This document shows, one piece after another, positions 4,197 to 64,000 of a DNA stretch of 64,000 bases. Position 1 is the first letter of the stretch. Each line of letters starts with the position of its first letter. Source of the stretch: Fistulifera solaris (Eukaryota). The notes below the pieces were generated by a model that saw only the letters and a list, made by a program, of their open reading frames with translations, was not told the origin of the DNA and made no database searches. The stretch is taken from positions 558,001 to 622,000 of the forward strand of contig AP026138.1 in NCBI GenBank assembly GCA_030295235.1. Direction: 5' to 3'. The translations under genes were made by a program, and so were the position numbers.

Positions 4197-6455
4197 ATGT
4201 CGATCGAAAAGGATGACACCGTTCCAACGCGACACGTCGATGGCGAAACAATCTCCGATGCGAGTGGAAGAATGGGAGTGTATACCGGAAATATTGCGAT
4301 CTGCGAAAATGGGAAAGAACTTCCTCACGGTGTCGGTGGATTCATGCTCTATCATGCTCCGCCGCCGTCGTTGCCGCCGCCGCCTCCTCCGGGGACCGTA
4401 TCAACAACAACGCCTGTTACGAAGCCAAGCCCTACTCCACCTGCCATTACAGTTCTCAAATACGAAGGAGAATGGTGGCAAGGTTACTGGCATGGCAAGG
4501 GAAAGTACAGTTTATCGAGTGGCGACGAATACGAGGGTGCCGTTTGTTTTTCGAAAAATCACGGCAAAGGAACATTGCAATACGCCGATGGACGTCACTA
4601 TACAGGTCAGTGGAACCACAATCTACGAGAAGGGATAGGGACTTTCACATGGCCGGGAGGATCGTATTATGAAGGGGAGTTTGTACACAATCTTCGACAC
4701 GGTCAAGGACACTTCGTCGATCCGAAACGGGCGGTCGAGTATACCGGAAGCTGGGAGCGCGGGGTGTATCAAGGCGAAGGAATTTATCAATGGACGGATG
4801 TCAAAGGACAAGTTCATTGTTACACGGGAACATTCATGCAAGGGAAACCCCACGGGAATGGTAAAGAAGTGAATCAAACTACGGGAGATACGCGTCACGA
4901 TGGATTATGGCGGAATGGAGAACCGGTCATGGAATTGAGCGATCTTGTTTCGTCCGAAACTTTGCTTTCGTCGCGTGTCGCGGCGTCTGCCAAATCGCGG
5001 AAAGAAAAAAGTCATACGACTGTCGTTCAGGATCATATTTATTTTGATCAAGAAGGCAGACAAATTGTGTATCGGGGCTTGTGGAACTCGGAGAAAGAGT
5101 TTCCGGACGGAAATGGGACAGCCGAATGCCTCAAAGGGTCCGACAAGGGTCTCACCGAAGAATGGAAATCGTACGAGGGTTGCTTTATCGACGGAATATT
5201 TCATGATCACGGAAGGCTTCATTTAGCATCGGGGGATATGTACGAAGGGGACTTCGATCAAGGACTCCGCCATGGGAAAGGCTTGTATAAATGGAAAGAT
5301 GGTAGGCAATATACCGGTGAATTTGTAAAGGGTTCTCGACACGGGATAGGGTGTATGGCTTATCCAGATGGCAGCTTGTACGAAGGATCATTCGAACATG
5401 GACAGCGTCAAGGCTATGGCAAGTTTATGTTTGGTTCCGGTGGCGCCATGTACGAGGGTGAATGGAAAGATGGCAAATACAATGGCACTGGAATACTGGT
5501 ACATCAGGATGGGGCTACGTATTCGGGAGATTTCGTGGATGGCCAGTCTCATGGTCAGGGCAAAGAAGTCAGCTCCGAAGGTGTCGTCACTTACGAAGGT
5601 ACATGGATTCACGGAAAACCCGAAAACTCCACTGTTTCGGATCTTCCGGACCAAGAGTCAGAACAAGAGGCGACGAGAGACGTAGCGAATAGCGACTTTG
5701 ATACCGCTGGAGTCGAAGCACGTACAGATTCTGAAGCGGAAAATGCTGGTGAGTCGCCTTTGGCTAACAATGAAGAGGACGATGATCACGAAGCTGTTGT
5801 AGACGAACCAATTCTTGATGCTCAAGGAAATCCAGGAAACTATACTGGTCTTGTATCGAAACGCACGCGTCGCCCCAACGGTGTTGGTAGACTTGTGTAT
5901 GGAGATGGCAAACGGATTCATGAGGGCTTCTGGAAGGACGGCCGCAAGGAAGGTCATGGAAGATGCATATTCTTTCCACATCGAGACTTTCATGAAGGGA
6001 ATTATCAAGATAATCTTCGTAGCGGTAAAGGCATTTATAAATGGAGCGACGGCAGGTGTTTTGAGGGTAATTATGTGAAAGACTTGAGAGACGGCTACGG
6101 TGTCTTCACTTACCCCAGCGGAGAGAAGTATGAAGGAAATTTCTGTGAAGGCCGTCGATCTGGCTACGGACGATTCACGTTTGACAAGGGTAGGAGTGTA
6201 TACGAAGGTGAATGGAGTGATGGGAAGTATCATGGGTACGGGTCTTTGCGCTGGGGACAAGGCTATCACTACGAAGGTGAATTCGTCGACGGAAGGTTTC
6301 ATGGGCATGGTAAGAAATCCGACCCCCAAGGCAACGTGATTCTCGAGGGCGAGTGGGTTGCTGGAAAATATCTTGACTTCGAAAACAAAGAAGACGATAA
6401 ATTGTCGGAGCAGTTTGATACAATGATTGTCACTGAAGGCGAGGAGGCTTACTGA
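4197..6455 (+). CDS. MORN-repeat protein with three MORN blocks
   Basis: Uninterrupted ORF, first ATG at 4197 (MSIEKDD). About 20 or more YxGxW/FxxGxxHGxG repeats in three blocks separated by linkers, with a poly-Pro insert in block 1. Confidence 0.92.
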   Translation: MSIEKDDTVPTRHVDGETISDASGRMGVYTGNIAICENGKELPHGVGGFMLYHAPPPSLPPPPPPGTVSTTTPVTKPSPTPPAITVLKYEGEWWQGYWHGKGKYSLSSGDEYEGAVCFSKNHGKGTLQYADGRHYTGQWNHNLREGIGTFTWPGGSYYEGEFVHNLRHGQGHFVDPKRAVEYTGSWERGVYQGEGIYQWTDVKGQVHCYTGTFMQGKPHGNGKEVNQTTGDTRHDGLWRNGEPVMELSDLVSSETLLSSRVAASAKSRKEKSHTTVVQDHIYFDQEGRQIVYRGLWNSEKEFPDGNGTAECLKGSDKGLTEEWKSYEGCFIDGIFHDHGRLHLASGDMYEGDFDQGLRHGKGLYKWKDGRQYTGEFVKGSRHGIGCMAYPDGSLYEGSFEHGQRQGYGKFMFGSGGAMYEGEWKDGKYNGTGILVHQDGATYSGDFVDGQSHGQGKEVSSEGVVTYEGTWIHGKPENSTVSDLPDQESEQEATRDVANSDFDTAGVEARTDSEAENAGESPLANNEEDDDHEAVVDEPILDAQGNPGNYTGLVSKRTRRPNGVGRLVYGDGKRIHEGFWKDGRKEGHGRCIFFPHRDFHEGNYQDNLRSGKGIYKWSDGRCFEGNYVKDLRDGYGVFTYPSGEKYEGNFCEGRRSGYGRFTFDKGRSVYEGEWSDGKYHGYGSLRWGQGYHYEGEFVDGRFHGHGKKSDPQGNVILEGEWVAGKYLDFENKEDDKLSEQFDTMIVTEGEEAY

Positions 6456-6853: not shown

Positions 6854-9028
6854 CTACTCAACAAGGTGCCCGTTCTCCCACACACCGTGTTTTTTCTTGC
6901 CATCAGCAGTAACTTCCATTCCAAGCCCATGTGCCACAGAATTTTTGAATTCGCCCGTATACTTTGATCCAGAAGCAGAGACGAGTTCACCATTGCCATC
7001 ATACCGCCCTTCCTTCCATTCGCCTTCATAGTAACCTCCATCAAACTTGTAACGACCAAATCCTTCGAACATGCCATCACAAAATTCTCCTTCGTATACG
7101 TTGCCGTTGTGAAAGGCAAATTTTCCCTGGCCGTGACGCTTGTCCTCGCGGAACATTCCGGTGTATACATCCCCATTGTCCCATTTATAAACTCCTTTAC
7201 CATGTCTAGCGTCAAATACAAACTCTCCTTCGTAAGTGTCGCCATTGGGATTCAGTAGCTTCCCCTTGCCATTCCATTGCCCATTGATCCAATCACCCGA
7301 GTAAAGTCGGCCACTGTCGTAGTTCATTTTACCAGTACCGTGTGGAAGACCTTCTGACACAAGGAAAGTTCCAGTGTAACGTCCCGAATCACCGTATTTA
7401 TCTCTAGATTGCACATTCGACACTGAAAAGAGAAACTTTTCCGTTGGCAATCCAGCTTCTTCGGCGGCTTTCTTCGCTGCGCGGGCTTCCGCCATCACAC
7501 TATCATCAAAGAAGCAGTTGTACAAGAGCGGTTCCGCCGAGTCGTCATCATTCTGTGCTGTACCTGCCGGGCTGGGCAAATCCAACAAGTTCGGCGGAGC
7601 AATGGATGCAATTCGAGCGAATGGCTTAGGCTCTTGTGATGAAGCTGAGTCGAGTCCCATGGGAGGAGGAGGAAGAATACTAGCTTTTCTGTCTTGCGTG
7701 ATTGGATCGGGAGACTGAGCATCAGCCCCTCGACTGAGTGGAAGAGCATTCAGAGACGATGTCAACATGCCAAGTGGCATTTCACCACTATCCCCAACGT
7801 CGCTACTATCGACCGTGATCTTGTCTTTCTTCTTTCCTTTGCGAATCGGCGGCGGACCCGTCATAATGGGGAAATCTGTCGGATCCGCTGAGTGTTGTCG
7901 AACCAGTACGCCACGCACGGGTACCTGTAAAGCGCTTTTCTCAGCCACTCCAATCTTGAGCTTGTTTCGTTCTGTTGCATGATGGGGCTTTGGAGGCTCT
8001 TTCGGAATATCCAACAAGCCACCTCGGAAAGAGGCGAATAATTTCGACGGATCGTTGGCCAAATTGACATCAGCATCGTTCATGTACGTGGAGCCGGTTG
8101 GCGTTTGCGCCTCCGAACGACTGGCCGGAGAAAAATCAGGAACGCCTTCTTCGAAACTACGGGACCTACCCAATGAGGCCCGGTTCGGAACACTAACTCC
8201 TGCCCGAGCGCGACTGGCTCTTTGAAAGAATTTCATTTGACCCTGGAGGCGCGGATCTTCCTGTGGAGAAGGCGAATTGCTCCGGCTTCGGGGTGGAAAG
8301 GGCGATGTGATCGATTTATCTGGACTACCCCTTCGATTTTGCTGATCTATCTCTACACGATTTGGTGAAGTCATGGAAGTAGATGACCGTGCATCAGTAT
8401 CATCGTCTGTTTCAGCGTCCTGTTGCAATTGTGCTTCGTACTCCGCTTCCGCCTCCAGTTCGAGTTGTTTTTGGGTTGCCATAGTTTTGATCAACTTCAA
8501 GTCTTGTTGAATGGTCCGACGCAAGGCGCGGATGGTTTGATTTTGCTCAATAACGGTAGTTTCAGAGTCCGCCAGTCGTTGTTCCAACTTGGAGATCTGC
8601 ATCTTCAAACTCAAGACCTCCTTCTCCTTCGTACGCAACATCCAGTTCTGGACCTGTGACAAACGCTTCAGCGTAGAAGCCAAGTTATCTGTTTGCTGAA
8701 AGATAAGATGTGGAGCCAAGGACTCGACAGAAGCTTCGGATGATTCCGCCGCCTGGGGGGGATCGCCTTCGCACTCGGCCATGACATTCTTCGACGAAGT
8801 ATTCGTTTGCAACTGCTTCACAACTGCAGCAAATGACATTCTTTGTTGAATGCCGACCGCCTTTTCCTCTGCCGTGCACATGTTGCAAGAGAGGATGGCA
8901 TTGTTATCTTGCACCAAGATAGGGCAGCTCGGATGTCGCAAACATGTGCCCTTCTCACTGATGCCGAGTGCTTCTTGCCAAACGATCTTTTCGTCATTCT
9001 TCTCTCCTTTCTCTTGCTTTTCGGTCAT
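6854..9028 (-). CDS. MORN-repeat protein with N-terminal Cys/His motif and coiled coil
   Basis: 724-aa ORF: CLRHPSC...CNMC motif, coiled-coil segment (LSLKMQISKLEQRLADSE), disordered middle, C-terminal MORN repeats. Confidence 0.9.
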   Translation of the reverse strand: MTEKQEKGEKNDEKIVWQEALGISEKGTCLRHPSCPILVQDNNAILSCNMCTAEEKAVGIQQRMSFAAVVKQLQTNTSSKNVMAECEGDPPQAAESSEASVESLAPHLIFQQTDNLASTLKRLSQVQNWMLRTKEKEVLSLKMQISKLEQRLADSETTVIEQNQTIRALRRTIQQDLKLIKTMATQKQLELEAEAEYEAQLQQDAETDDDTDARSSTSMTSPNRVEIDQQNRRGSPDKSITSPFPPRSRSNSPSPQEDPRLQGQMKFFQRASRARAGVSVPNRASLGRSRSFEEGVPDFSPASRSEAQTPTGSTYMNDADVNLANDPSKLFASFRGGLLDIPKEPPKPHHATERNKLKIGVAEKSALQVPVRGVLVRQHSADPTDFPIMTGPPPIRKGKKKDKITVDSSDVGDSGEMPLGMLTSSLNALPLSRGADAQSPDPITQDRKASILPPPPMGLDSASSQEPKPFARIASIAPPNLLDLPSPAGTAQNDDDSAEPLLYNCFFDDSVMAEARAAKKAAEEAGLPTEKFLFSVSNVQSRDKYGDSGRYTGTFLVSEGLPHGTGKMNYDSGRLYSGDWINGQWNGKGKLLNPNGDTYEGEFVFDARHGKGVYKWDNGDVYTGMFREDKRHGQGKFAFHNGNVYEGEFCDGMFEGFGRYKFDGGYYEGEWKEGRYDGNGELVSASGSKYTGEFKNSVAHGLGMEVTADGKKKHGVWENGHLVE

Positions 9029-17963: not shown

Positions 17964-19043
17964 ATGAAAGGTTCATCGTGTGCATTCTTTGTTTCGACGC
18001 TTTGCTGCGTGAACGTCATTCATGCTTGGCTGGGTTCGACGATGAAGCAGAAGCCGTTCTCTACTTTCCCATCAGTTTCTCGTCCTTCAGTAACAAGGAA
18101 ATTGTTCATGGACATTGAACAAGATTCAGTAGCAAAATCATTTCGCATCGAAATTCCAGGTATCGCGTCGGCACTGTCGATTCCTCGACACATCCAGCAT
18201 TCTGAAATCGATCAAGCTATCGCAGCCAACGGAATGCCTTGGCAGTCATCGATTGATCCGCACTATCGTAGTTTAGCAGACGATTCCAATAAACCCTTTT
18301 ATCTGCCATTTTGGGAATGGCAAATGGATTACATGAAAAAACATTTAACCAATCTCCAAGTCCTGCCGGTCGAGAGCAAGCAAGGTCAGGATTTGTCCTA
18401 TCGAACCAATGGCAAGGTTCGATTGCATACATTTCAATGCTCTTCGGACGAATACAAATGCATCCGCATGACGGTCATGGATGGCGGTGCACGGACGCAA
18501 GTCTTTACTTCGCTCTGGTATCCCCAACCGCACTTCCATCTACCCGTTTTGGGGATCGACTTGCTCCAATTCGGACAATCCAAACATCTCTGTATCGTCG
18601 ACTTTCAACCGATTCACGAAAATTCATCACAAGACCAGCCATTTGAGCACTTGCTACAACCCATTCGTGACCAATACCCTTCTTTGCACGGAAAAATGAC
18701 CCGACGGTTCTACGACGAAGATGCCTTCTTTTCCAAGCAGATGCTGTTGGGGAGAAGCGACCGCGCCGGCGCCAACGATCTGGTCTACAAAAATTTGTTT
18801 CCGGCGTACCAGGCGTATGTCAACACACATGTTCAAATGGTACAATCCGCGACGCCCCGCCCATCGACCGTGGCCGACGTATTGCAACGACATGCGGCCT
18901 ACGATAACTACTCGGCCGCTCGCGATCCGGCGCATGCCATGCTGGCGGCGACCTTTGGAAACGACTTTGCGGATGACTACGTTTACGATATCCTGTTTCC
19001 GCTGGCGGATAGAGGCGTCAGTGGTACACTGGAGTCCTGTTGA
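17964..19043 (+). CDS. pebA: Ferredoxin-dependent bilin reductase, PebA lineage (divergent copy), plastid-targeted
   Basis: IRMTVMDGGARTQVFTSLWYP..LPVLGIDLL..VDFQP, FYDEDAFFSK and YDNYSAARDPA are PebA-type motifs. Signal peptide ends VIHA-W. Confidence 0.88.
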   Translation: MKGSSCAFFVSTLCCVNVIHAWLGSTMKQKPFSTFPSVSRPSVTRKLFMDIEQDSVAKSFRIEIPGIASALSIPRHIQHSEIDQAIAANGMPWQSSIDPHYRSLADDSNKPFYLPFWEWQMDYMKKHLTNLQVLPVESKQGQDLSYRTNGKVRLHTFQCSSDEYKCIRMTVMDGGARTQVFTSLWYPQPHFHLPVLGIDLLQFGQSKHLCIVDFQPIHENSSQDQPFEHLLQPIRDQYPSLHGKMTRRFYDEDAFFSKQMLLGRSDRAGANDLVYKNLFPAYQAYVNTHVQMVQSATPRPSTVADVLQRHAAYDNYSAARDPAHAMLAATFGNDFADDYVYDILFPLADRGVSGTLESC

Positions 19044-19288: not shown

Positions 19289-20392
19289 TCATGGTCGCGC
19301 GGCGCCCACCGGTTCCTTGACTCCTATCGAAGTTTGTGTTCGTTGCGGAAGGCTGGATCGAGTCGTCGTTGGTCGCTCACTCATACTGAACAAGAAATCA
19401 TGGACAAAATCCATGGCCCATTCTGCCCCAAACATGGCCGTAAACAAACCAGTGGCTGGATCGCGTTCCGCCGAATACGTATCGTACGCTTTTTGTCGCT
19501 TCAATACCATGTCGAGGTCCGCCTCGACTGGATCCACTTCGCGGATCAAATCCAAGTGTGTCTGGACGTAGGATTGGAATGCCGGAAACAGTTCGTTCGA
19601 GATGATGCTTTCGTCTTCGAACCGCGAAAACAACATTTGTTGCGAAAAGAATTGTGTTTCATCGTAAAACTTGGAAGACATGCGTCCCTTGAGGTTCTCG
19701 TATTGCTCCTTAATGGGTTGGAGTCGGTGTTCAAAGGTGGTCGCGTGATCTTCCTCGTTTTCGTGCAAGGGCTGAAAGTCCACAATCGCCAAATACTTCT
19801 TACGATTAAAGGCCAACAAGTCAATGCCCAATACAGGAAGATTGTACTTCGGGTCCGGGTAAAAGACAGCGTTGTAGACTTGTGTGTTCTCACCCGCATC
19901 GTAATAAGTCATTCGAATCTTGCGATATTCCGAGGACGAGGCACAGAGGCTGACAATTCTGGCTTTCTTTTGGATGTTCTCATTGTACGAAAAGTCGGTT
20001 TTACCGTTCGTGCACGGCATGACTCGTAAGTTGGTCAAATTCTCTTTCATAAACGACATGTGCCATTCCCAAAACGGCATGTAGAGCAGATCTTCTTCCT
20101 CCGGGTATTTGGGATCAATGGAAGATTTCCATGGCATGCCTTGCGCGGCCTCGGCATGAGAGATGCTGATGCTCGGAGGATAACTATCATGAAGCAATTG
20201 ATCGAGATTGTATCTAGCTTTTGCATCAATAAAATCCTTTTCTGTATCCATGCGCATGATTTCGGTAGAGGAAACAAATGTTGGCGATGCCGCCGGTTGG
20301 CCGAGGAACGCACTTTTTCGCGAAAACGAACCAACGTACGCCTCCGTCACGATAACATTAGCGGTCACAAATAGTATTTGACAGGTGTTCAT
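19289..20392 (-). CDS. pebA: 15,16-dihydrobiliverdin:ferredoxin oxidoreductase (PebA)-like, plastid-targeted
   Basis: RKIRMTYYDAGENTQVYNAVFYP..LPVLGIDLL..VDFQPL, FYDETQFFS and YDTYSAERDPATGLF..FGAEWA.DFVHDFLF. Probable ATG at 20392 gives a signal peptide ending VTEA-Y. Confidence 0.92.
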   Translation of the reverse strand: MNTCQILFVTANVIVTEAYVGSFSRKSAFLGQPAASPTFVSSTEIMRMDTEKDFIDAKARYNLDQLLHDSYPPSISISHAEAAQGMPWKSSIDPKYPEEEDLLYMPFWEWHMSFMKENLTNLRVMPCTNGKTDFSYNENIQKKARIVSLCASSSEYRKIRMTYYDAGENTQVYNAVFYPDPKYNLPVLGIDLLAFNRKKYLAIVDFQPLHENEEDHATTFEHRLQPIKEQYENLKGRMSSKFYDETQFFSQQMLFSRFEDESIISNELFPAFQSYVQTHLDLIREVDPVEADLDMVLKRQKAYDTYSAERDPATGLFTAMFGAEWAMDFVHDFLFSMSERPTTTRSSLPQRTQTSIGVKEPVGAARP

Positions 20393-20697
20393 TGTCCTTT
20401 CGATTGATCTGTTGCTATTTGGATCGATTTGTTCTGTACAAGCTGCCTTTGAAGAGATCGTTAAGACGCTGTTGGGAGGAAGTTGAAGAGATTCGCCCAT
20501 CGGATCGCTGCCGCTGAAGTTGAACCAACGAAGATCGTGAGGTTTGCAGTTCTCCACGCACTTTTCAAAAACAGAAAGTTAGTACTTTCCTTGGTATAGT
20601 GCATTGATGCTATGATGTTTAAAGTAGTCTTGGATTCGGATTGGCGGATCTAGAAAAAATACGTATTTTTTCTAGGGCGGATTGGCGAATTGGGGAC

Positions 20698-24869: not shown

Positions 24870-25123
24870 ATGGGTTTTGATGGTCACGAAGTAGCTTTTG
24901 GAACAACCTTGGTAGGTGCGGTTGCATTGGTTCAAAGGACGCTACCCAAAGGTTGGGCGAGGTCCTTTGTGCACCGACACCCCGTTGCCGCCATGTCTTG
25001 CTTTTGGGCGTTTACTGGAATTGCGCTTCCTTTTTGATGCCACCTATGCGTCGAATGCTGAAATTGCCTACAAATCAATACGATGCGGAGCATCCCAAAG
25101 CTGTTGTCCCTAAATATGTCTAA
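24870..25123 (+). CDS. NDUFA3: Complex I accessory subunit B9/NDUFA3-like (one apparent frameshift)
   Basis: ...FVHRHPVAAMSCFWAFTGIALPF joins MPPMRRMLKLPTNQYDAEHP across the T run at about 25031-25036. It resembles the fungal 9.5-kDa subunit (single TM followed by PPxRR). Probable 5'UTR intron at about 24750-24856. Confidence 0.65.
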
Positions 25124-25219
25124 ACGAATTACATGTCAAGTGCTATGATGGGCTGTATTTCCTCAACGTAGATGAGAGGCGATTATTATAAAAAAATTAA
25201 ACTAAAAAATTAAACTAGT

Positions 25220-25705
25220 CTAACTGCGGAGTGTTACTCTCTCCAAGTATTCAAATATGATTTTCAGTATTGATTCTAGAAAAGGTATCCGAATCAAAAC
25301 TCTGCACCACAAAACGTAGAACACTACAGTCCAAAAGAATGCAACAGAGAGCATCAAAATCCGTTGTTCTCGCTGCTGGGCGCGCTGAAGAGATGTTAGG
25401 GCCGATTTCGCTTTGGATGCGTTCAGCAACTGCTGATCAGTCTTGGACTCTGCTAACAGCTTTCCGTCACTATCAATGGCTCTCCCCACTTTTTCGACGC
25501 GCTCCAACTCATTTTGTAGCAAAGCTTGAGTTCTCCGCAAAGACTCTTGAATCGCTGCTGCCTCGGAAGCAGTTCCGCTTGTATTGAGAGATGACCCCGC
25601 GAAGCGACGCCTTGTGACCGGTTGCTTGTCATCGAAAAGTTCACTTCGGTCTTGTTGAAATGAGGCTGTCATTCTAGGGCGTGAGGTGCTTTTCCGGTTC
25701 GCCAT
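25220..25705 (-). CDS. SEC20: Sec20/BNIP1-like SNARE
   Basis: ESLRRTQALLQNELER coiled coil and C-terminal TM (ILMLSVAFFWTVVFYVLWCR). ATG at 25705. Confidence 0.7.
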   Translation of the reverse strand: MANRKSTSRPRMTASFQQDRSELFDDKQPVTRRRFAGSSLNTSGTASEAAAIQESLRRTQALLQNELERVEKVGRAIDSDGKLLAESKTDQQLLNASKAKSALTSLQRAQQREQRILMLSVAFFWTVVFYVLWCRVLIRIPFLESILKIIFEYLERVTLRS

Positions 25706-26258
25706 TTCCTTTAAATTAGATCGAATAGAACAGGAAACAAAAGGGAGTGTCTTTTGTGCAATATATAATATTCGTCGCTTTGTTATTGTTGTTGACAGTT
25801 GACAATTATAAGAAACACAACGCGAAAATGCTACAAAAAGCAACGCGCATCGCCTTATAGGGTCAAGGATAAAATCAAAAAGTCGTGTTCAGAAACAAGA
25901 AACAAGTCCAAGTTTTGTCAGTAGCAAACTCAGAAACGGTACACAAAGCTACAGAAAACCTTTAGTGTCTTTTCTCCTTATACTTATCAAACCATACTTA
26001 GTTATTCTTATTATAGCAATAGAAAGCAGGAATTCGAGGGCCCATGGCCGAAACAAAACGCCCTTGAGAATGTGACGCACGTAAACCATCAATTTCGCGC
26101 AACGTCACAATCCTCGACAGAGCGCCACTCTTTTATCGAGAAAAGCAGCCGTCAAAATATCGCAAACATTGCAACAACGACGTCGTGACACTTCGTTCAT
26201 TACATCTCATTTCCTGTAAATCCTCTGCTCTAATTGAAAGCATTATCAACCCATTAGA

Positions 26259-27551
26259 ATGAAGTTCTCTGTTGCAGCCGCCTTGTTTGCCCTCGTGCCC
26301 TCTCAGGGTTTCCAGGTTTCGATGTCATCCACTGGATACTTCGATTCTATGAGCCGAGGAGCCAGTAAACCTTCGAACTTTTCTCCTTTCGGGCGCAAAA
26401 TGAGCGACGGAAAGAGTTCCAGTGCATATCTCAATCAAGTGTCCGGAGCGGCACCTTCCTATTCTGCTCCTGCGGCCTCGAGTTACGGTGGTGCCTCTCC
26501 TCCTTCGTACTCAGCTCCTGCTACTTCGGCTTATCAACCAGCCCCTTCTGCTCCTGCACCCGTCTCCTCTTTCAGCGGTGGTTCTGCAAAGCCCGCAAAC
26601 TACAGTCCTTTCGGAAAGAAGATGAGTGACGGAAAGGGATCCAGTGCTTACCTCAATGCTGTCACTGGATCTTCTCCCGCATACTCGGCGGCTCCTGCCA
26701 CTTCGGCTTATCAACCGGCACCTGCTGCTCCTGCACCCGTCTCTTCTTTCAGCGGTGGATCTGCAAAGCCCGCCAACTACAGTCCTTTCGGAAAGAAAAT
26801 GAGCGACGGAAAGGGATCCAGTGCTTACCTCAATGCTGTTGCTGGATCTTCTCCTTCGTACTCTGCTCCGGCCACGTCGGCTTATCAACCGGCACCTGCT
26901 GCTCCTGCACCCGTCTCATCCTTTGGAAGTGGTGCTGCGAAGCCCGCTAGTTATTCTCCTTTTGGGAAGAAGATGGCTGACGGAAAGGGATCTAGTGCTT
27001 ATCTTAACTCTGTGGCTGGATCTTCTCCGTCCTATTCGGCTCCTGCCACTTCGGCTTATCAACCGGCACCTGCTGCCCCTGCACCCGTTTCCTCCTTTGG
27101 TAGTGGCGCTGCAAAGCCCGCCAGCTATTCTCCGTTTGGAAAGAAAATGGCCGACGGAAAGGGATCAAGTGCTTATCTCAATGCTGTCGCTGGCGGAGCT
27201 CCTTCGTACTCGGCTCCTGCCCCAGCGGCCCCTGTCACTCCTAGCTACCAACCTGCCCCGGCTGCCCCCGCTGCAGCATCAACCAGTAGCTATCTAAACA
27301 TGGGAGGAGGTGGAGCCGCCAAGCCAGCCAGCTATTCTCCCTTCGGTCGCAAAATGGGAGCCAGCAAGTCTTCCAGCACTTACCTCGAAAACGTAAGCAA
27401 TGCCGCACCGGTTTCTAGCTCTTACAGCTCCTTCCACAGCACTCTATCCGAGGCTTCGTCGGCGGCACCCAAGCCCCAAGAAAACCGTTTCTTTCTTCAA
27501 GACATTGCCTCACAAGGAACCTACCTTGACGCCACCAAGAGCCGGTGGTAA
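26259..27551 (+). CDS. Plastid-targeted low-complexity protein with six KPxxYSPFGKKM.DGK.SSAYLN repeats
   Basis: Intact 430-aa ORF. Signal peptide MKFSVAAALFALVPSQG-F. Repeats of about 58-75 aa, rich in S/A/P/G. Differences between DNA repeats are largely synonymous. Confidence 0.9.
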   Translation: MKFSVAAALFALVPSQGFQVSMSSTGYFDSMSRGASKPSNFSPFGRKMSDGKSSSAYLNQVSGAAPSYSAPAASSYGGASPPSYSAPATSAYQPAPSAPAPVSSFSGGSAKPANYSPFGKKMSDGKGSSAYLNAVTGSSPAYSAAPATSAYQPAPAAPAPVSSFSGGSAKPANYSPFGKKMSDGKGSSAYLNAVAGSSPSYSAPATSAYQPAPAAPAPVSSFGSGAAKPASYSPFGKKMADGKGSSAYLNSVAGSSPSYSAPATSAYQPAPAAPAPVSSFGSGAAKPASYSPFGKKMADGKGSSAYLNAVAGGAPSYSAPAPAAPVTPSYQPAPAAPAAASTSSYLNMGGGGAAKPASYSPFGRKMGASKSSSTYLENVSNAAPVSSSYSSFHSTLSEASSAAPKPQENRFFLQDIASQGTYLDATKSRW

Positions 27552-27939
27552 GGCGACCAGAGAAAGATCTACATATTGAAACTATGTTACAGTACCGCGA
27601 TATGAAAGGAATAGGCATTGCCGATGGCCCCAAAATAAGATACATTTAATCCGAATCTTTTCTTTTAGGTTCTACGTTAGTTCTCGGACTTGATCCTCTG
27701 GCCTCTCTGATTTACTTCAGGTTCAGGCTGCATCAATTTTCGATATAATTCGTACTGTAAGTTGATCACAGTACAGAGTAGTAGCTTTCGTTACCGGTAA
27801 GACTGTTTTCCGTCTGTCTGTGTCCCGCATTGACCGGCATAGCGTCCAACAAAAAACGTCAAGAAAGCGAGATAGGTTTTTCAAAATTTCCCACCATGAA
27901 TGACATCAAAAGATCTTCTATCCACATCATCCTCTCATC

Positions 27940-30900
27940 ATGAACAAGCGTCGACGACTCTCTCCGCTTGGGGCGTCTGAATTCGCAGCCATCTTGAATG
28001 GAGAAGATCCGGGCGCGATTCATGATGCACTGCGTCGTTTCGTTCAAACGGTTCGTGAAGAACGACGAGCTGCGGTGGGAGATTCGTCCCTCGAAGAAAG
28101 AAAGACCAGTGACTCGTCCACCAGCGAGGATGAAGAAGACAAGCCTTTGCAAAAGAAACAAAAGTTTCGAAAAGAAGACTCGTGGAAAGAGGACACGGCG
28201 AACTATGATGTCCCTTTGTCGGGACTTCGGTGGCGAGAGGAGATACAGGTCAGGTCGTCGCGGGAGAGTGGCCAACCGGTTTATTGAAAGCTTACGTGGA
28301 AAAGAGTCCAAAAGCTATTGAATTCAATCATCTATTGCCTGGCGGACCGATTCATAAAATACTACTGCGCCGGAAACATGGCAGAACTTGGCACAAGATT
28401 CAGAAATTGTATCTGCAGGCAGTCTCGGAGCTCATTACTGTGGCCGTTCCTCTTGAATGCATCAAGAATGATACAATGCCAAGTCGAAATACATCTAATA
28501 AGGACAGCTCGACCCGCCAAATCGTCGAAACGTTGGTGTCTTCTCACTTTTCTGGATGGTGCTTGTTGTTGAAGGAAGAAACTGGAAATGGAAAGGGAAA
28601 GGCGGGTGTCGTCGGTGGCTGTGGGGAACTTGCTCCGTACATTATTCGAATCTTTCATCGGCTGACCCGGATCAGCTCGGAAAATGCTCGCCACATTATG
28701 CGCGATGTAGAGCAGAGCGTTTCGGAACATGCTTTGCGCTTCATTCTGAAGAAGCCGAACAAAGAGGGGGGAAGAGTACGCTGCCAGCTTCCGAGCCGCA
28801 TCCAAAATTGAGCTTCTTGAATGGGTTGGCTGGTTGACGTCAATTCCTGATCATGTTATCCTTTCTCGACTGTGTTCACCCGGTGCTCGTGATCGAAAGA
28901 TATCTCCCGGTCTTCTATACATGTCACTCAAGGAGGGTTTGGCGGATTTCGGACCCGACAGTGTGGCGTCTGCTGTCGAGCTCGTTATTCGAAATCTAAA
29001 AGGCGTATTGATGAGTGAGGATTCTCGTTCTCGGAAGATACTGATAGACGTATTCTCCAGAGATGCGGTGCAAAGTTTGTGCCAAGTTGCAGCTCATGCG
29101 CCTGTACTGTCATCCCAGAATAGCGTCGAACAGGTATTACAGTTCATTGACAAAACCTACAATCAGGTCGAAGCCGTCGGATCAGAAGCCCGTCGGTTAT
29201 TATTTATCTTGATTTGCGACCCTGAGAAGTCCCCTTTGGTTCATAGCCTTCGAAAGAACTTAAAGAGCGCTAAGCGGACACGTCCAGTGATATTACAAAT
29301 CGTTCAGCATTTTCTAAAAGTCGAAAGTGGCGAAATGACAAAGCTCGCACTTCAGACGGTGCGCGTGAATCCTTCGCTTTTTGGACCGCTTCTGCAGAAT
29401 TTCTTGTTCCCCGACATGAAAAGAACGTTTGCCTTTGTAGCGCGGGTTAACTTTGCTGCCAATTTGATCCTTCATGGGCCTTCGATTGAGGAATGTCTGA
29501 AAAGTGATGGCTCTTATAAGCGCATTGTAGACGATGCAACGCTTCTCCATTTGTTCCTTCCGTGCAACATCAAAGATACGATTCTCCGAAAAGCGCTACA
29601 GAGTGGGAACACTCTTATTGTAGCGGAAGTACTGAAGCTGATTGTTTTCATTCTGAAAAGGATATGCTGCTATTCGGCTGCTTTGGAGGATGATGATGAA
29701 AAGGTGACCTTAGAGCCTCAGCGACTTTGGAATTTGTTGAAAGCTTGGATTCCGGAACCCAGTTTACTCGTTTCTATTTTAGTGAAGTATGATGCGTCGC
29801 AGGGACTGGCTTCAATGGCGGTGACTAATCGGGTGTGCCTCGTCCTGAAGTTTCTTCTTGATAATATTCCTGAGGTTTTTTCTGGTGTTACTTTTGACTG
29901 GTCGAAACTCCTTTCAAATGACAGTAGCTTTAGTTCTGCGAGATCGATTGTCCAAGGCGCAATGCTTAAAACTGTTATGCTAATGCTGGAAGCAAATCAG
30001 GTGAGTCGCTAATTCGTATTCTAAGCTTACGAATTGTTCTACTCTGTCCTTATCTTTGTTTCCCGAGTAGCTGCGATTACCCCCGGGAACGGAAGCCAAG
30101 TTCTGCTACGAGCTTTTGCGCATCCTTTTACACACTAAAGTCGTATACGTGTACGATTTAGCGAAGAAGACTATTCTACACTACTTATCTGCTCATTTGG
30201 GAAACCAAGGAGACTCTGAGCATAGATCATTTGTTGCGGATGAAATTTCGTGTTGGATCGACGGCCTTTCTATTGCTACTTTGGGTGATTTTTTCTCTGT
30301 TCTCCAGCAAATCTTACAGCAGCCGTATCACTTCACACTTCAGTTTGCAAAAATTTGGCTAGATTGTGTTGGAGACAAGGCAGTGCCGCGAATGCCTTTT
30401 ACTGCTCTGATGATTCAATCGCTTCGCTTGGTCCATCAAGTGTCCTCCCAGTATACTCTCTTGTACTCGCAAGTTGCGACAAATGCCTTGCTGTTTCATA
30501 ACGACCCTGTCGCACTTGCAACTGTAATAAAGGAAGTATATCACCAGGAACAGTTAGGTGGACAAAGCGTATGCATGGACCGACTAGTTCAGTTAATTGA
30601 CGACTTATTTTTCAGTGGAAGGTCAGGCAAATTTGAGCAGCTCACTGCACTGGGCGAACACTTTGGGTCTTTATTTTCGCCTCATCGACATCCTATTCCT
30701 TGTCTGATCCGAAAAGTTAAGAACCGAGCAAGTCTGTCAATCAGTAATCTTTCATTGAGCTGGGAGGACGTGCTACTGTTGGTTCGCCAATGTTCCAATC
30801 AAATGATGTGGCATGAAACTGATCGAAAGGCACTTTCAAATGGACTGAAAAGTGCTCTTCCAGGTCTATTACTGGTAAATCTCCGTGCTTGATGAGTTCG

Positions 30901-58377: not shown

Positions 58378-61300
58378 ATGGTTACGCAAAATCAACGACG
58401 ACAAAGAGCTGTCGTCTCCTTGTTGGTGATGATGTGCACATCGGTTGTGTCACAAAATGTCGAGTGCCGACTAAAGCCAGATGAGTCCGGAGCGCTCAAG
58501 TACGTTTGTGAAGTCGATCAACCACTCCCGATGGTAAATGTCATTACAAACAACTCGTCCGAAGCGCCGACGGCAGCACCCACCGTAACAATGCGAACGA
58601 TCGTTCCTCAATTGCAGTATCTCGGTGAACCCGTCAATATTCAAACTCCCTTAGAAAACTGTCAAGGCGACTGCGACACTGACTGGGACTGCGGATACGG
58701 TCTTAATTGTTTCCATCGCCGCGCCAAAGAGCCCGTGCCGGGATGCGGAAGAGATGGAATTCGAGCCGTGGATTACTGCTATATTCCTCGGCCGGGCGAG
58801 CTTGTTGTGGTTGGATCAAACTCGACTTCCAACATTTTTTATCCGTTTGGGCAATGTGAAGGTCATTGTGAGAGCGACGCGGATTGTATCTCGGGGTTGC
58901 AGTGTTTTGTTCGTGATGATTTCGAAGCAGTACCTGGTTGTACAGGGGTCGGTGCTCAAGGAACAAACTACTGCTACCTCGCCCCTCCGAGCGATCAACC
59001 TTCTTCCGTACCATCCGATCAGCCTTCCGACGTACCATCGCTAACTCCTTCCGTAGAATTATCTGCAGTACCGTTCTCTGCAATGTCCGTCACACCGAGC
59101 ACAGAGGTCTTTGTTGAGACAGAAGGTACACGCTTCCGTTTTGCCGGCTTCCCTCCTCATAATCCTCTACTGGGTATGTGTGAAGGTCACTGTGCTTCCG
59201 ATGCGGATTGCGAACTCGGATTGGTTTGTGAGCGACGCGTTGAATTTGATAAAATGTCAAGTTGCTCGGGAGTAGGAATGATTGGTGTAAATTACTGTGT
59301 GGAGCCTCAGGATGGTCAGTTGAGATTGATCGGAAACGAGAAAGACGCGTTGCATTTTCCCTACGGAATGTGTGAAGGTCATTGTACATGTAGCCTGGAT
59401 TGTCGTGCCGGCTTGCAATGTTTCCGCCGCGATGATGTTGAAAGTGTTCCGGGATGCAGTGGTAGTGGTGCTTCTGGAAGAAATTACTGCTACGATCCCG
59501 ACGATTCTGACTTTGATGGATCTGAAGTGAAGACAGCATCGCCTTCCGTGATGGAATCCTCAGCGATAGTCAGCGATTATCCCAGTGATTCGCCCAGCGA
59601 TCTTCCCAGCGAAATGCCCAGCGATCTACCAAGTGATTCGCCGAGTACAGTAACCTCCGACTACCCTTCTTCCGAGCCAAGTCAAAGTCCAGTGTTGTTT
59701 CGGCCCACAGAAGGAAATTCGTATCGCCCGAGCTTGACCCCATCCCTTCGTCCCTCGATTCATCCATCGGCTTCGCCATCGTCAGTGCCAAGTATCCATC
59801 AATCAGGGGCTCCATCTCAACAGAAAACCATGACCCCTACGAGCTTTAGAGGAAATGATCTGGAAGAGTCAAGTGTCCCTACTTTTGAGCCCTCGACTGT
59901 AGCATTGTCGGATCCTCCGTCGATTGTCCATACTAACGAACAATCGTCTATTCCGACTTCCACACAAGATTCAAGGGTACCATCTGCATCTCCCAGTGTC
60001 TTTATTGGTTCTATCGCACCGTCAAGTACTCCTTCGGTGGCTCCAGCTGAAACTGAAAGCTCAAAACCTTCAACAGTCACGTCCGGTACGCCTTCAATAG
60101 CACCGACAGTGCAACAATCTTCTGAGCCCTCTGCAGAACCTTTATCAATGTCGCCGTCGAAAATTTCCAGTACCGTGCCATCAAATGTCGCCTCTTCGAG
60201 CGTCCCCTCAGCTCCACCCTTCGTTCAGCAATCGTCGGAGCCGTCTGTTAAAGCCACTTCTTTGTCACCATCCGCGGTGCCATCGGTCGCAGCCACTTCG
60301 AATGTACCGTCACTTTTACCTTCCGTCCTGCAATCGTCAGAGCCCTCTCGAACTACCTCTTCGGCACCTTCTGGCTCACCCTCCACCGCGGCCACTACGA
60401 ATGCACCGTTAGTAATACCTTCCGTTCGGGAATCATCCGATCCCACTGTGCAAGCAGCCCCATCCGATGTTCCAAGTGCCGCGCCATCAAATAATCGGTC
60501 CATTCAAGTGTCACCTGAACCCTCAGTGCCCTCAGTGAAGACCAGTTCCTTGGTCCCGTCTGATACTCCCAGTGCCGCTCCATCAATCAGAAGGTCTGTC
60601 CAAGAATCAGCTGAACCCTCAGTGAAAACCACTTCATTGGCGCCGTCCGACAGGCCAAGCACGACGCCATCATCTTCGCCCTCTGTTCGGGAATCGATCG
60701 AACCTTCAGTGAAGACTCCTTCAGTTGTCCCTTCTGATATTCCGAGTGCCGAGCCATCAGATGTACGATCCATTCAACCTTCAGCTGAACCTTCAGAGAA
60801 AGGTACTTCAATCGCTTCGTCCGACAGTCCCAGCACTTTGCCATCGATTACGGTCGCTTCGAATACACCAACATCTCTGCCTTCTGTTCGAGAATCATTC
60901 GAGCCCTCAGTGGACAAAACACCATTAGCTCCTTCTGATATTCCGAGTGCGGCGCCATCAAATGTACGGTCAATCGGAGTGTCAGACGAGCCCTCAGTGA
61001 CATCCATTTCGATGGCTCCGTCCGACAACCCAAGCGCTTTGCCATCAATTGCTGCTACTTCGGATGCTCCATCGTTTTCACCTTCCATTCAGGAATCGTT
61101 CAACCCCTCAGTAAAGATTACTTCATCAGCTCCTTCTGATATTCCGAGTGCCGCGCCGTCGAATGTACGATCCATCGAAGTGTCAGACGAGCCCTCAGTG
61201 TCATCCATTTCGATGGCTCCGTCCGACAACCCAAGCACTTTGCCATCGATTGCTGCTACTTCGGATACTCCCTCGCTGTTACCTTCTGTAACTACATCCG

Positions 61301-64000
61301 ATGTACCAAGTGCTGCGCCGTCAATTGAAGCCGATTCGGATGTCCCCTCGCCAACGCCGTCGTACAAATACTCTGACTCTCCAAGTGATGTGCCTTCAGT
61401 TGCAGGTTCTTCGGATTTACCATCACTATCGCCGTCTGTCAATCACTCTTTTGAACCCTCAATCGGAGCAAAATCGTCGGCGCCATCAATGCTCGGTAAC
61501 AATCAAGTTGGAGATAACTCTGATGCGCCTAGTTCTGTCCCTACACCCGTGGCTGCAGGGTCAAAGGAGCTTGAATACTTAGGATTGCCTCCCTATGTTG
61601 ACGCCCGTCTTTCCGAGTGCCAGGGTGACTGTGACAGCGACCTCGATTGTGACTTTGGGCTGAACTGTTTTAGGCGAATTGCATTTGAGCCTGTTCCAAA
61701 TTGTCTAGGAACCGGTATCAGAGCGATAGATTATTGCTACGTCCCACCTTCCGGTCATTTGGTTGTGACTGACATTGGGGCTAATATATCTTTGAATAAA
61801 TGCGAAGGGCATTGTAGGACCGATTCGGATTGTGTTGGCGCGCTGAAATGCTTCCAGCGGCAATATCTACAGGAAGTTCCCGGATGCTATGGGCTCGGTG
61901 CTGTTGGTACCGACTACTGTTACGATCCCAACGACGAGGTCCCATCCAATCCAAACTTGCTACGTTCGCAGTTTCCTTCAGATGCTCCATCGCAACTGCC
62001 TTCTGATGAACCATCCTCTGTACCTTCAACAATACCGACAACAGCCTCGCCATCTACATTCCGAGACAACCAAATTGGAGACAGGTCCGACGCGCCAAGT
62101 GACCTCCCCTCGCCCGCAGTCGAAGGGTCGAAAGAACTCGAACTTATCGGTAGACCTCCCTTCGGTGACGATCGCTTAGACGAGTGCCAGGGAGACTGTG
62201 ACAGCGACCTTGATTGTGGCTTTGGGTTGAACTGCTTCCGGCGATTGTCTGCTGAGCCTGTGCCAGGATGCACAGGGAGTGGTATGGAAGGCGCCAACTA
62301 TTGCTACGTACCACCTCCAGGTCGCTTGGTTGTAACAGGTACGGGGCCCGATCTTTCGCTGGAAAAGTGCGAGGGTCACTGCGAGGACGATTCGGATTGT
62401 ACTGGTAAACTGAAATGCTTCAAGCGCCTGTATCTTCAAGAAGTTCCTGGATGTGATGGTCTTGGTGCCGTTGGTATGAACTATTGTTATGATCCGGAAC
62501 ACGTCAATGAGGTCGAACCGCCATCGCTTAGTCCAGCAGCTTCGCTCTCGTATTTTCCAAGTGATGTTCCAACGAGTGTGATTGCCTCAGATATCCCCTC
62601 TAGAGCCACGGAGTCTGATATCCCCTCGAGCTTGTTTACTTCCGATCTTCAATCGCGCGTTCCCTCCGATGTTCCTTCCACCATAACCACTTCCGATGTT
62701 CCATCACAACTGCCTTCTGATGAACCATCCTCCGTACCTTCAACAATACCGACAACAGCCTCGCCATCTACATTCCGAGACAACCAATTTGAAGACAGGT
62801 CCGACGCGCCAAGTGACCTCCCCCTCGCCCGCAGTCGAAGGGTCGAAAGAACTCGAGCTTATCGGTAGACCTCCCTTCGGTGACGATCGCTTAGACGAGT
62901 GCCAGGGAGACTGTGACAGCGACCTTGATTGTGGCTTTGGGTTGAACTGCTTCCGGCGATTGTCTGCTGAGCCTGTGCCAGGATGCACAGGGAGTGGTAT
63001 GGAAGGCGCCAACTATTGCTACGTACCACCTCCAGGTCGCTTGGTTGTGACAGGTACGGGGCCCGATCTTTCGCTGGAAAAGTGCGAGGGTCACTGCGAG
63101 GCCGATTCGGATTGTGCAGGTGAATTGAAATGCTTCAAGCGACTTTATCTTCAAGAAGTTCCAGGATGTGACGGTCTTGGTGCCGTTGGTATGAACTATT
63201 GTTATGATCCGGAACACGTCAATGAAGTCGAACCGCCATCGCTTAGTCCAGCAGCTTCGCTCTCGTATTTTCCAAGTGATGTTCCCACGAGTGTAATTGT
63301 CTCAGATGATCCTTCCACCGCATTGGCTTCTGATGATCCATCATCCGTACCTTCAGGGTTTCCCTCTGCTTTTGGCAATCAGAACGAAGACAAGTCTGAC
63401 GCGCCTAGTGACTTCCCCCCTCACGCGAGGTCGAAGGGTCGAAAGAACTCGAGTTTATCGGTAGACCTCCCTTCGGCGATGACCGCTTAGACGAGTGCCA
63501 GGGAGACTGTGACAGCGACCTTGATTGTGGCTTTGGGTTGAACTGCTTCCGGCGATTGTCTGCTGAGCCTGTGCCAGGATGCACCGGGAGTGGAATGGAA
63601 GGCGTCAACTATTGCTACGTTCCACCTCCAGGTCGCTTGGTTGTAACAGGTACGGGGCCCGATCTTTCGCTGGAAAAGTGCGAAGGACACTGCGAGGCCG
63701 ATTCGGATTGTGCTGGTAAACTGAAATGCTTCAAACGCCTGTATCTTCAAGAAGTTCCCGGATGTGATGGTCTAGGTGCCATCGGCATCAACTATTGCTA
63801 CGATGCAATTGAAGCAACTGACAGTGATATGCCTTTTGCATTCCCCTCATCCGCCCCATCTTTGGTTGGAGTAGTGTCTATGAATCCAGTTACAAGTGGA
63901 ACTGTTCACCCGACAGGACTTTCATTGGCTTGTAATATGGACATCAATCAACGAAGAGTCGGAATCACACAAGTGATTCAAACGGTGTCCTCTGCGGAAA
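58378..64000 (+). CDS. Very large frustulin-like cell-wall protein: 12 acidic cysteine-rich (ACR) domains and S/P/T-rich spacers (3'-partial; two apparent frameshifts)
   Basis: Hydrophobic N-terminus; repeated C(Q/E)G(D/H)C..D.DC..GL.CF...VPGC.G.G....YCY domains; PSxxPS spacers. Frame shifts at C runs near 62820 and 63417. The last frame is open to the window end. Confidence 0.92.

Follow-up and report, generated by a model that had tools for sequence, protein, structure and literature searches.

A six-module diatom protein with a predicted plastid presequence, distantly similar to the pyrenoid component DPC2, as a candidate pyrenoid scaffold

What might a diatom use a basic, repeat-built protein for that carries six copies of one short module behind a plastid-type presequence? 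This question is raised by an open reading frame (ORF) at positions 26259..27551 (+) of a 64,000-nucleotide stretch of Fistulifera solaris DNA (contig AP026138.1, positions 558,001 to 622,000; this whole stretch is called the window in the following). A first-pass annotation, made from the letters of the DNA, had described the ORF as encoding a plastid-targeted protein of stickers and spacers and as a candidate Rubisco linker of the pyrenoid. We show that the locus is a real gene under purifying selection. Judged by its motifs, its product is a member of a small unnamed diatom family, and it shows a significant, distant and weak similarity to a bona fide member of the Diatom pyrenoid component 2 (DPC2) family. 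We suggest, tentatively and with somewhat less than even confidence, that the product is a multivalent scaffold of the pyrenoid matrix, most simply a cross-linker of Rubisco.

The ORF is intact and single-exon, encoding 430 amino acids (aa) followed by a stop in the standard code, and its first in-frame ATG sits 8 codons past an upstream in-frame stop. The mature product comprises ~413 aa with a mass of 40.6 kDa and an isoelectric point (pI) of 9.7. No ORF of at least 80 aa is present on the opposite strand of the locus, and the sole overlapping ORF, located at 26833-27297 on the same strand in another frame, is Leu/Arg/Pro-rich and a by-product of the repeat. The chain contains six copies of KPxx[YF]SPFG[KR]KM, each followed after 4-6 residues by S[AT]YL[NE]xV, resulting in modules of 25 aa at residues 37-61, 111-135, 170-194, 228-252, 286-310 and 355-379 (Table 1), with the aromatic residues of successive modules being 74, 59, 58, 58 and 69 aa apart. 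The spacers are rich in Ser, Ala and Pro and contain a Tyr every ~8-16 residues, as in PSYSAPATSAYQPAPAAPAPVSSF. The tail RFFLQDIASQGTYLDATKSRW (residues 410-430) carries a final YL-type motif (GTYLDAT) and a basic-Trp end (...KSRW). Ser (21.6%), Ala (19.8%), Pro (11.9%), Gly (9.3%), Tyr (6.3%) and Lys (5.8%) dominate the composition, and 30 of the 430 residues are Lys or Arg as compared to 11 Asp or Glu. Searching all six frames of the window, we found the first-half pattern six times, in every case inside the ORF, and the second-half pattern seven times, six of them inside the ORF. The earlier claims of an intact 430-aa ORF with a signal peptide followed by Phe, of six copies of a two-part motif and of a basic sticker-and-spacer design with few acidic residues are thereby borne out. 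Matches of the ORF to the Pfam families DUF5871 and MBD stayed below the cut-off, are located on the repeat and were rejected.

Table 1. Sequence features of the ORF in window coordinates
Feature	Position	Strand	Sequence	Basis or remark
Signal peptide	26259..26309	+	MKFSVAAALFALVPSQG	hydrophobic core; small residues at -3 and -1
Phe at +1, then short S/T-rich transit-peptide-like stretch	26310..26366	+	FQVSMSSTGYFDSMSRGAS	script and reading by eye
Module 1	26367..26441	+	KPSNFSPFGRKMSDGKSSSAYLNQV	translation
Module 2	26589..26663	+	KPANYSPFGKKMSDGKGSSAYLNAV	translation
Module 3	26766..26840	+	KPANYSPFGKKMSDGKGSSAYLNAV	translation
Module 4	26940..27014	+	KPASYSPFGKKMADGKGSSAYLNSV	translation
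Module 5	27114..27188	+	KPASYSPFGKKMADGKGSSAYLNAV	translation
Module 6	27321..27395	+	KPASYSPFGRKMGASKSSSTYLENV	translation
DNA tandem array	26496..27221	+		174-nucleotide (58-aa) period, 4.2 copies, 84% matches; Tandem Repeats Finder
Additional YL-type motif before module 6	27285..27302	+	SSYLNM(GGGG)	'xYLxxMGGG' kind, as in P0028 and P0002
Non-repeat C-terminal region	27414..27548	+	SSSYSSFHSTL, then RFFLQDIASQGTYLDATKSRW	translation

Where is this product likely to go? Diatom proteins destined for the plastid carry a bipartite presequence of the ASAFAP type, consisting of a signal peptide, a Phe, Trp, Tyr or Leu at +1 and an S/T-rich, acid-poor transit peptide, with the aromatic residue or Leu at +1 being the mark of plastid import. 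The N-terminus of the ORF has each of these features. The signal peptide reaches a best 9-residue Kyte-Doolittle mean of 2.89 and is followed by a G|F site, i.e. MKFSVAAALFALVPSQG|FQVS, and the first acidic residue after the predicted site is found at +12; the site itself, MKFSVAAALFALVPSQG|FQVSMSSTGYFDSMSRGAS, was placed by a crude script and by reading by eye. A copy of the YL-type motif, TGYFDSM at 26331-26351, already lies inside the transit-like stretch. Among 37 hydrophobic N-termini of the family, DPC2 and PYCO1, 35 show Phe (28), Leu (6) or Tyr (1) after a small residue, as placed by a script that favours F/L/Y sites and that set three of the six Leu inside the hydrophobic core, the correction of misplaced Leu sites by eye giving A|L for P0028 and P0056 and G|F for P0049 (P numbers denote relatives of the ORF product). 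Moreover, a start of the form F-x-[VLI]-[ST]-M-S-S-..-Y-L-[DE] recurs in many relatives. The G|F site and the same pattern in relatives confirm the plastid-type presequence read by the first-pass annotation, and the product is predicted to be imported by means of a secondary-plastid presequence.

Structure prediction points to a chain without a stable fold. AlphaFold2, supplied with an alignment of four sequences, returned a mean predicted local distance difference test score (pLDDT) of 39.8 and a predicted template modelling score of 0.14. A pLDDT below 50 was assigned to 411 of the 430 residues, and the model is devoid of secondary structure. The ESM Atlas holds a letter-for-letter copy of the protein with a model pLDDT of 0.38; this entry gave no feature matches, and every structure match had a template modelling score of at most 0.26 on either measure. 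Neither the family profile nor the ORF nor P0033 matched any PDB sequence at E<=10. The disorder proposed for this protein is thus supported by both predictors.

Do the repeats reflect selection on the protein or merely recent duplication of the DNA? Comparing units 2-5 with one another (six pairs, 39-codon windows) we counted 78 synonymous and 35 non-synonymous codon differences, and units 4 and 5 differ by 17 synonymous and 3 non-synonymous codons. In pairs including the outer units 1 or 6, synonymous and non-synonymous counts are about equal, so that the mostly synonymous divergence stated earlier for the repeats holds for the internal units and not for pairs with the outer ones. Natural variation gives a second view: in two public runs, one from a wetland metagenome and the other labelled organism A, 84% of the words sampled from the locus and its flanks are present. 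Runs X1 and X2 each contain two versions of the locus, one being identical to the window and the other ~9% different. The latter is seen at 26184-26657 and elsewhere within 25000-28600, one contig of 406 nucleotides differing by 37 letters, and it may represent a second allele, another strain or a closely related species. Of the 22 variant sites that are listed for this second haplotype within the coding sequence, 17 fall on third codon positions; 244 further sites lie outside the list, and some mappings within the repeat may mix copies. Because both the repeat copies and the second haplotype differ mainly at synonymous sites, we conclude that the encoded protein is under selection, in agreement with the selection on the motif that had been suspected. 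Contig ends leaving the window within the repeat (26947-27373) encode related, different sequence, e.g. SSAYLDNMKA, which suggests that the same samples carry paralogues or related species with the same module. No RNA run was listed among those containing the locus, and run X2, which is only guessed to be RNA, covers the intergenic DNA evenly.

The ORF product does not stand alone. A word-indexed search returned three relatives sharing its repeat design, an exhaustive HMMER search of 1.84 billion representatives with a profile of these three yielded just 31 proteins at E<=1e-3, and two further profile searches brought the total to 58 family proteins, with only the 8000 candidates sharing most words being scored in each of these. 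The sources are environmental or run-derived (JGI, ENA, Logan) with two exceptions. P0027 is the NCBI entry 'expressed unknown protein [Seminavis robusta]' and comes from a raphid pennate diatom, while P0058 is an MMETSP transcript. Across the family the first half of the module has the form [KR]-x-x-[NS]-Y-[SA]-P-[F]-G-x-K-[PMWF], and the second half, [SG]-x-Y-L-[DN]-x-[VLM], lies 15-19 residues further on, a distance observed in 138 of 157 cases (12 commonest distance classes). The supposed private 'YSPF sticker' of a lone new protein therefore has to be given up, the two-part motif being family-wide. The 33 members with at least three stickers space them by a median of 59 aa, with 67% of the 168 intervals falling into the range 50-79, and the spacer sequences are unconserved despite this period. 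The pI is at least 9 in 28 of 34 members. Overall, family proteins range from 83 to 1251 aa and from 1 to 18 modules, and P0010, P0013 and P0031 possess additional non-repeat C-terminal regions. A mature chain starting with F-S-[VI]-T-M-S-S-(x)-Y-L-D-N-L is common among relatives, and many of them, including P0002, P0004, P0014, P0015, P0020-22, P0026, P0029, P0030 and P0032, end exactly with G-[SG]-Y-L-x-x-L. A smaller set ends with basic residues and Trp, i.e. P0041 (GKKW), P0048 (GRKW), P0027, P0028 and the ORF itself (SRW). This placement of motifs at the termini hints at a docking role. P0019 (163 aa, CYSPFAKIMADGKGRSAYYLNAMTG) is another close relative. The names of family members are uninformative, being only 'hypothetical' or 'expressed unknown protein', and literature searches using motif strings, DPC2, diatom linkers and Rubisco-binding motifs returned no description of the family or its motifs. 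P0024 and P0035 match BNR_assoc_N above its Pfam cut-off (E 2.9e-11 and 5e-16, respectively), and these matches, located on low-complexity repeats, are probably spurious.

The relation of this family to a pyrenoid protein is the observation on which our interpretation turns. Pfam represents DPC2 as PF25195 with a gathering cut-off of 70 bits. P0058 passes this cut-off (E 2.8e-67, 224 bits) and is a bona fide member, and four other relatives match the model below it, i.e. P0057 (E 1.4e-11, 45.2 bits), P0028 (E 7.2e-7, 30 bits), P0056 (E 7.5e-6, 26.7 bits) and P0027 (E 2.9e-5, 24.8 bits). Composition-adjusted BLASTP aligns 211 aa of the ORF to P0028 with E 6e-9 and 37% identity, and three repeats keep their register in this alignment. 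P0028 aligns to P0058 with E 5e-13, and the ORF aligns directly to P0058 with E 6e-4. As controls, the mature ORF was shuffled 300 times globally and 300 times within windows of 10 aa for each comparison. The score of the ORF against P0028 (42.7 bits; shuffle maximum 25.4), against P0058 (27.3 bits; shuffle maxima 25.0 and 22.3) and against P0027 (29.3 bits) was reached by none of the 300 shuffles of either kind. The element common to the ORF and the DPC2 series is G-x-G-x-x-[SA]-Y-L-[DN]-x-V-[AG]-G. A comparable connection to DPC4_N (PF25197) was not obtained, the lone match among the relatives being that of P0021 with a non-significant E of 2.2.

The DPC2 side of the comparison consists of the Pfam model and of P0057 and P0058, which stand in for the T. 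pseudonana DPC2 sequence itself. Proteins of the DPC2 type resemble the ORF in their plastid-type presequence, the site being A|F in both P0057 and P0058, and in a low-complexity chain rich in Ala, Ser, Gly and Pro with repeated [SG]xYL[DN]x[VLM][AG]G motifs. They differ from it as P0057 and P0058 are devoid of the YSPFG half-motif and, judged by eye, have shorter and irregular YL intervals, whereas the ORF has the two-part module at a strict ~58-aa period. In the part of the T. pseudonana study available to us, DPC2 fused to green fluorescent protein is located solely in the pyrenoid, DPC2 interacts with Rubisco in affinity purification-mass spectrometry, and it is abundant (Nam et al., 10.1101/2023.10.26.564148). 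The same part of the text names it a strong candidate for matrix assembly, describes it as a hub and not as a linker, and expects a repeat period of ~60 aa for a diatom linker, which was found in none of the T. pseudonana pyrenoid proteins (10.1101/2023.10.26.564148). Because the family of the ORF grades into DPC2, the idea of a pyrenoid function gains indirect support.

To our knowledge, PYCO1 is the only known Rubisco linker of diatoms. According to its authors it has no homologues outside Phaeodactylum, is assigned to the plastid by ASAFind with high confidence (Dataset S1) and requires the diatom Rubisco small subunit (PMC10288592); it is described as not widely conserved and not present in centric diatoms in the accessible part of the T. 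pseudonana study (10.1101/2023.10.26.564148). We retrieved a reference by a degenerate DNA pattern derived from the peptide KNYSMVKWSPR (PMC10288592, Dataset S1). This resulted in a complete PYCO1 of 592 aa with all published peptides and motifs on a 17.7-kb environmental contig (Ga0163101_100141; L003:1434-3212, +), which served as a positive control by matching PF24428 (PYCO1_repeat) in six stretches with E 2.2e-115 (L003:1434-3209). L001, L002, L004 and L005 gave one match each to the degenerate sticker pattern.

The first-pass annotation had placed the ORF beside PYCO1, and we compared the two in several ways, none of which supports relatedness. The ORF does not match PF24428 at E<=10, and among 53 sequences (the ORF and 52 family members, ten of them checked to E 0.01 and the rest to E 10) no match to this model was found. 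KWSP, the core of the KWSPR/Q sticker by which PYCO1 binds the small subunit, is absent from all six frames of the window, and GYNP, part of its homotypic sticker GTGYNP, is absent from the ORF. BLASTP of the ORF against PYCO1 gave E 2, a score achieved by 154 of 200 shuffles, and hhalign aligned only the signal peptide. With a hidden Markov model (HMM) built from 170 family sticker units PYCO1 scored below its own shuffles, and with an HMM of the PYCO1 repeat the ORF scored -9.6 and the best family member 7.4 as compared to a shuffle maximum of 7.1. An excess of shared k-mers over shuffles largely disappears once PYCO1 is reversed: shared 5-mers number 99 in forward and 69 in reversed orientation, the informative ones being 16 versus 16, and are mostly compositional. 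The apparent likeness of family C-termini (SSSYNSMQNSF) to the EWGSMNQ of PYCO1 was rejected, as 439 of 500 and 155 of 500 shuffles were as good. Two local resemblances were retained. KNYSMVKWSPR aligns to KNYSGVSSKWAP of P0036 with a score of 35 reached by 7 of 1000 shuffles, the KNYSMV--KWSP resemblance (K-N-Y-S-x-V-..-K-W-x-P) being seen in the subfamily members P0036, P0034 and P0002, and the PYCO1 spacer peptide GAPSYSSMPGQAYAGSGPR aligns best to APSYSAPAASSYGGASP of the ORF, which 7 of 500 shuffles reach for the ORF alone and 78 of 500 for the whole family. By these alignments, the local resemblance to PYCO1 is a lead and not evidence of membership. In design the two proteins are alike, both being plastid-imported (predicted for the ORF) and disordered, with a pI of ~10, six tandem repeats, aromatic stickers and Tyr-rich spacers; they differ in that PYCO1 has repeats of ~80 aa, KWSPRGGS and GTGYNP stickers and a C-terminal EWxSMN, none of which occurs in the ORF.

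Is the ORF product built as Rubisco linkers are? As listed in the part of the FLIPPer work consulted, linkers have at least three repeats spaced by 20-120 residues, are largely disordered, have a pI above 8 and contain repeating structured elements. The ORF has six modules 58-74 aa apart, is disordered according to its AlphaFold2 pLDDT and is basic; its stickers lack the helical character in the same four-sequence model. The sources on green-lineage linkers, as far as accessible, give five stickers for EPYC1 and six each for CsLinker and SUPA1. The ORF is similar to these three in having 5-6 stickers, disordered spacers of ~40-60 residues, a basic pI and a plastid location (predicted for the ORF). 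In contrast, they have no sequence relation to it, their stickers are predicted to be α-helices or to become helical on binding, and they bind form IB Rubisco. The stickers of the ORF may likewise fold on binding.

The presequence, the disorder, the basic charge, the periodic modules and the kinship to DPC2 all fit a sticker-and-spacer design, and it is for this reason that we favour a scaffold or linker. This suggests a model according to which the nuclear gene product would enter the secondary plastid by its signal peptide and Phe-initiated transit peptide, would stay unfolded and would reside in the pyrenoid matrix. Each module could attach to a site that recurs in the matrix, form ID Rubisco being the prime candidate, so that one chain might bridge several Rubisco holoenzymes. 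The Tyr-rich spacers may also promote weak self-association, as is the case for other Rubisco linkers, and the Ser-Pro present in every module is a possible phospho-switch.

Several observations weigh against this model. The ORF itself has no match to the Pfam DPC2 model, neither as a whole nor as eight fragments, and when aligned directly with a true DPC2 protein it gives a weak, motif-centred match of 27 bits. Its score against P0057 was reached by shuffles, namely by 12 of 300 made globally and by 8 of 300 made within windows. What the proteins share, [SG]xYL[DN]x[VL] in a Gly/Ala/Ser context, is a short element in chains of low complexity, and we know of no established molecular role for DPC2. 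PYCO1, the proven diatom linker, is not detectably related to the ORF. AlphaFold2 gives no helix at the stickers, whereas linkers of the FLIPPer type have repeating structured elements, and five of 34 family members are acidic. Screens for linker-like proteins also return several non-linkers, the accessible parts of the reports giving 13 proteins for Chlorella and 8 for Ulva with one confirmed linker each. The pyrenoid location, the Rubisco partner, the cross-linking or phase separation and the regulation are all steps that we infer.

The closest competing explanation keeps the protein in the pyrenoid and gives it another task, i.e. matrix targeting, tethering to the PyShell or the pyrenoid-penetrating thylakoid, or recruitment of clients. 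That the motif occurs in proteins of such varied length and valency (83-1251 aa, 1-18 modules), three of which (P0010, P0013 and P0031) have extra non-repeat C-terminal regions, would suit a targeting function, as would its resemblance to the targeting motif common to many Chlamydomonas pyrenoid proteins, as described in the part of the source consulted; the description of DPC2 as a hub points in the same direction. However, six evenly spaced modules at a conserved ~59-aa period point to the bridging of repeated sites, and neither Pfam nor AlphaFold2 indicates a membrane segment or a folded adaptor domain in the ORF, rendering this explanation unlikely in our view. A disordered scaffold of the stroma unrelated to the pyrenoid, acting in the nucleoid, at the thylakoid surface or in another condensate, appears distinctly unlikely: a basic, disordered protein containing Ser, Pro and Lys could serve there, the link to DPC2 rests on a short motif and the family members carry only uninformative names, but the only characterised relative by profile is pyrenoid-specific, and acidic members share the motif, so that charge-driven binding of nucleic acids is not a conserved property.

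Outside the plastid, a secreted Ser/Lys/Tyr-rich protein of a benthic diatom, associated with the frustule, silica-forming or adhesive, would also have a signal peptide, a composition rich in Ser, Pro, Gly, Ala, Tyr and Lys, and repeats, and near-identical DNA is present in a wetland metagenome run. We consider it very unlikely, since the Phe, Leu or Tyr following the signal peptide in 35 of the 37 N-termini (by the biased script and by eye) is a signature of plastid import that secreted proteins would not be expected to show, PYCO1, P0057 and P0058 share the same N-terminal pattern, and silaffin-type proteins conserve composition and not a fixed module of 25 residues. Highly improbable, finally, is a divergent PYCO1 orthologue with NYSPFGKKM as the counterpart of KNYSMVKWSPR. 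The local alignments to KNYSGVSSKWAP and between GAPSYSSMPGQAYAGSGPR and APSYSAPAASSYGGASP, the common G|F presequence, the pI of ~10, the six repeats and the Tyr-rich low complexity would speak for it, but the PYCO1_repeat model, BLASTP, HMMs, hhalign and k-mers are all negative, the C-terminal RbcL-binding motifs are unmatched, the window lacks KWSP, and the GAPSYSSMPGQAYAGSGPR match fades into the shuffles once the whole family is considered.

Returning to the multivalent scaffold of the pyrenoid matrix, what would it mean for diatoms in general? Diatom pyrenoids fix about one fifth of global CO2. The accessible part of the T. pseudonana study leaves the packing of Rubisco in the pyrenoid unexplained (10.1101/2023.10.26.564148). 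The family of the ORF supplies the repeat architecture with a ~60-aa period that was expected in that study, together with a presequence and a sequence bridge to DPC2, and it offers short conserved motifs as candidate binders of form ID Rubisco. A bolder and doubtful extension is that the two-part module (YSPFG-basic followed by S-x-Y-L-D/N-x-V) might serve throughout the diatoms for binding to the pyrenoid or to Rubisco, DPC2 and the ORF family having it in common, with six-module proteins serving as the linkers of diatoms lacking PYCO1. If true, the module would be to the red lineage what the Rubisco-binding motif is to Chlamydomonas.

The gene is surrounded by nuclear DNA from a photosynthetic eukaryote. 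Its long and mostly uninterrupted ORFs encode, among others, PPR, HMG-box, MORN, Sec20 and ABC1 proteins and two ferredoxin-dependent bilin reductases, and Rfam and tRNA scans of the window gave no match. The two reductase genes (Pfam Fe_bilin_red) at 17964-19043 (+) and 19289-20500 (-) are adjacent and convergent (E 4e-43 and 8e-55) and appear to be a pair of paralogues in a genome of the diatom type. Two large MORN-repeat neighbours lie at 4197-6455 (+; 752 aa) and 6854-9028 (-; 724 aa). At the far end of the window, an ORF of 1496 aa at 58378-62868 (+), which has no Pfam match at E<=1e-5, coincides with the highest G+C content of the window (0.516-0.522 over 60001-64000).

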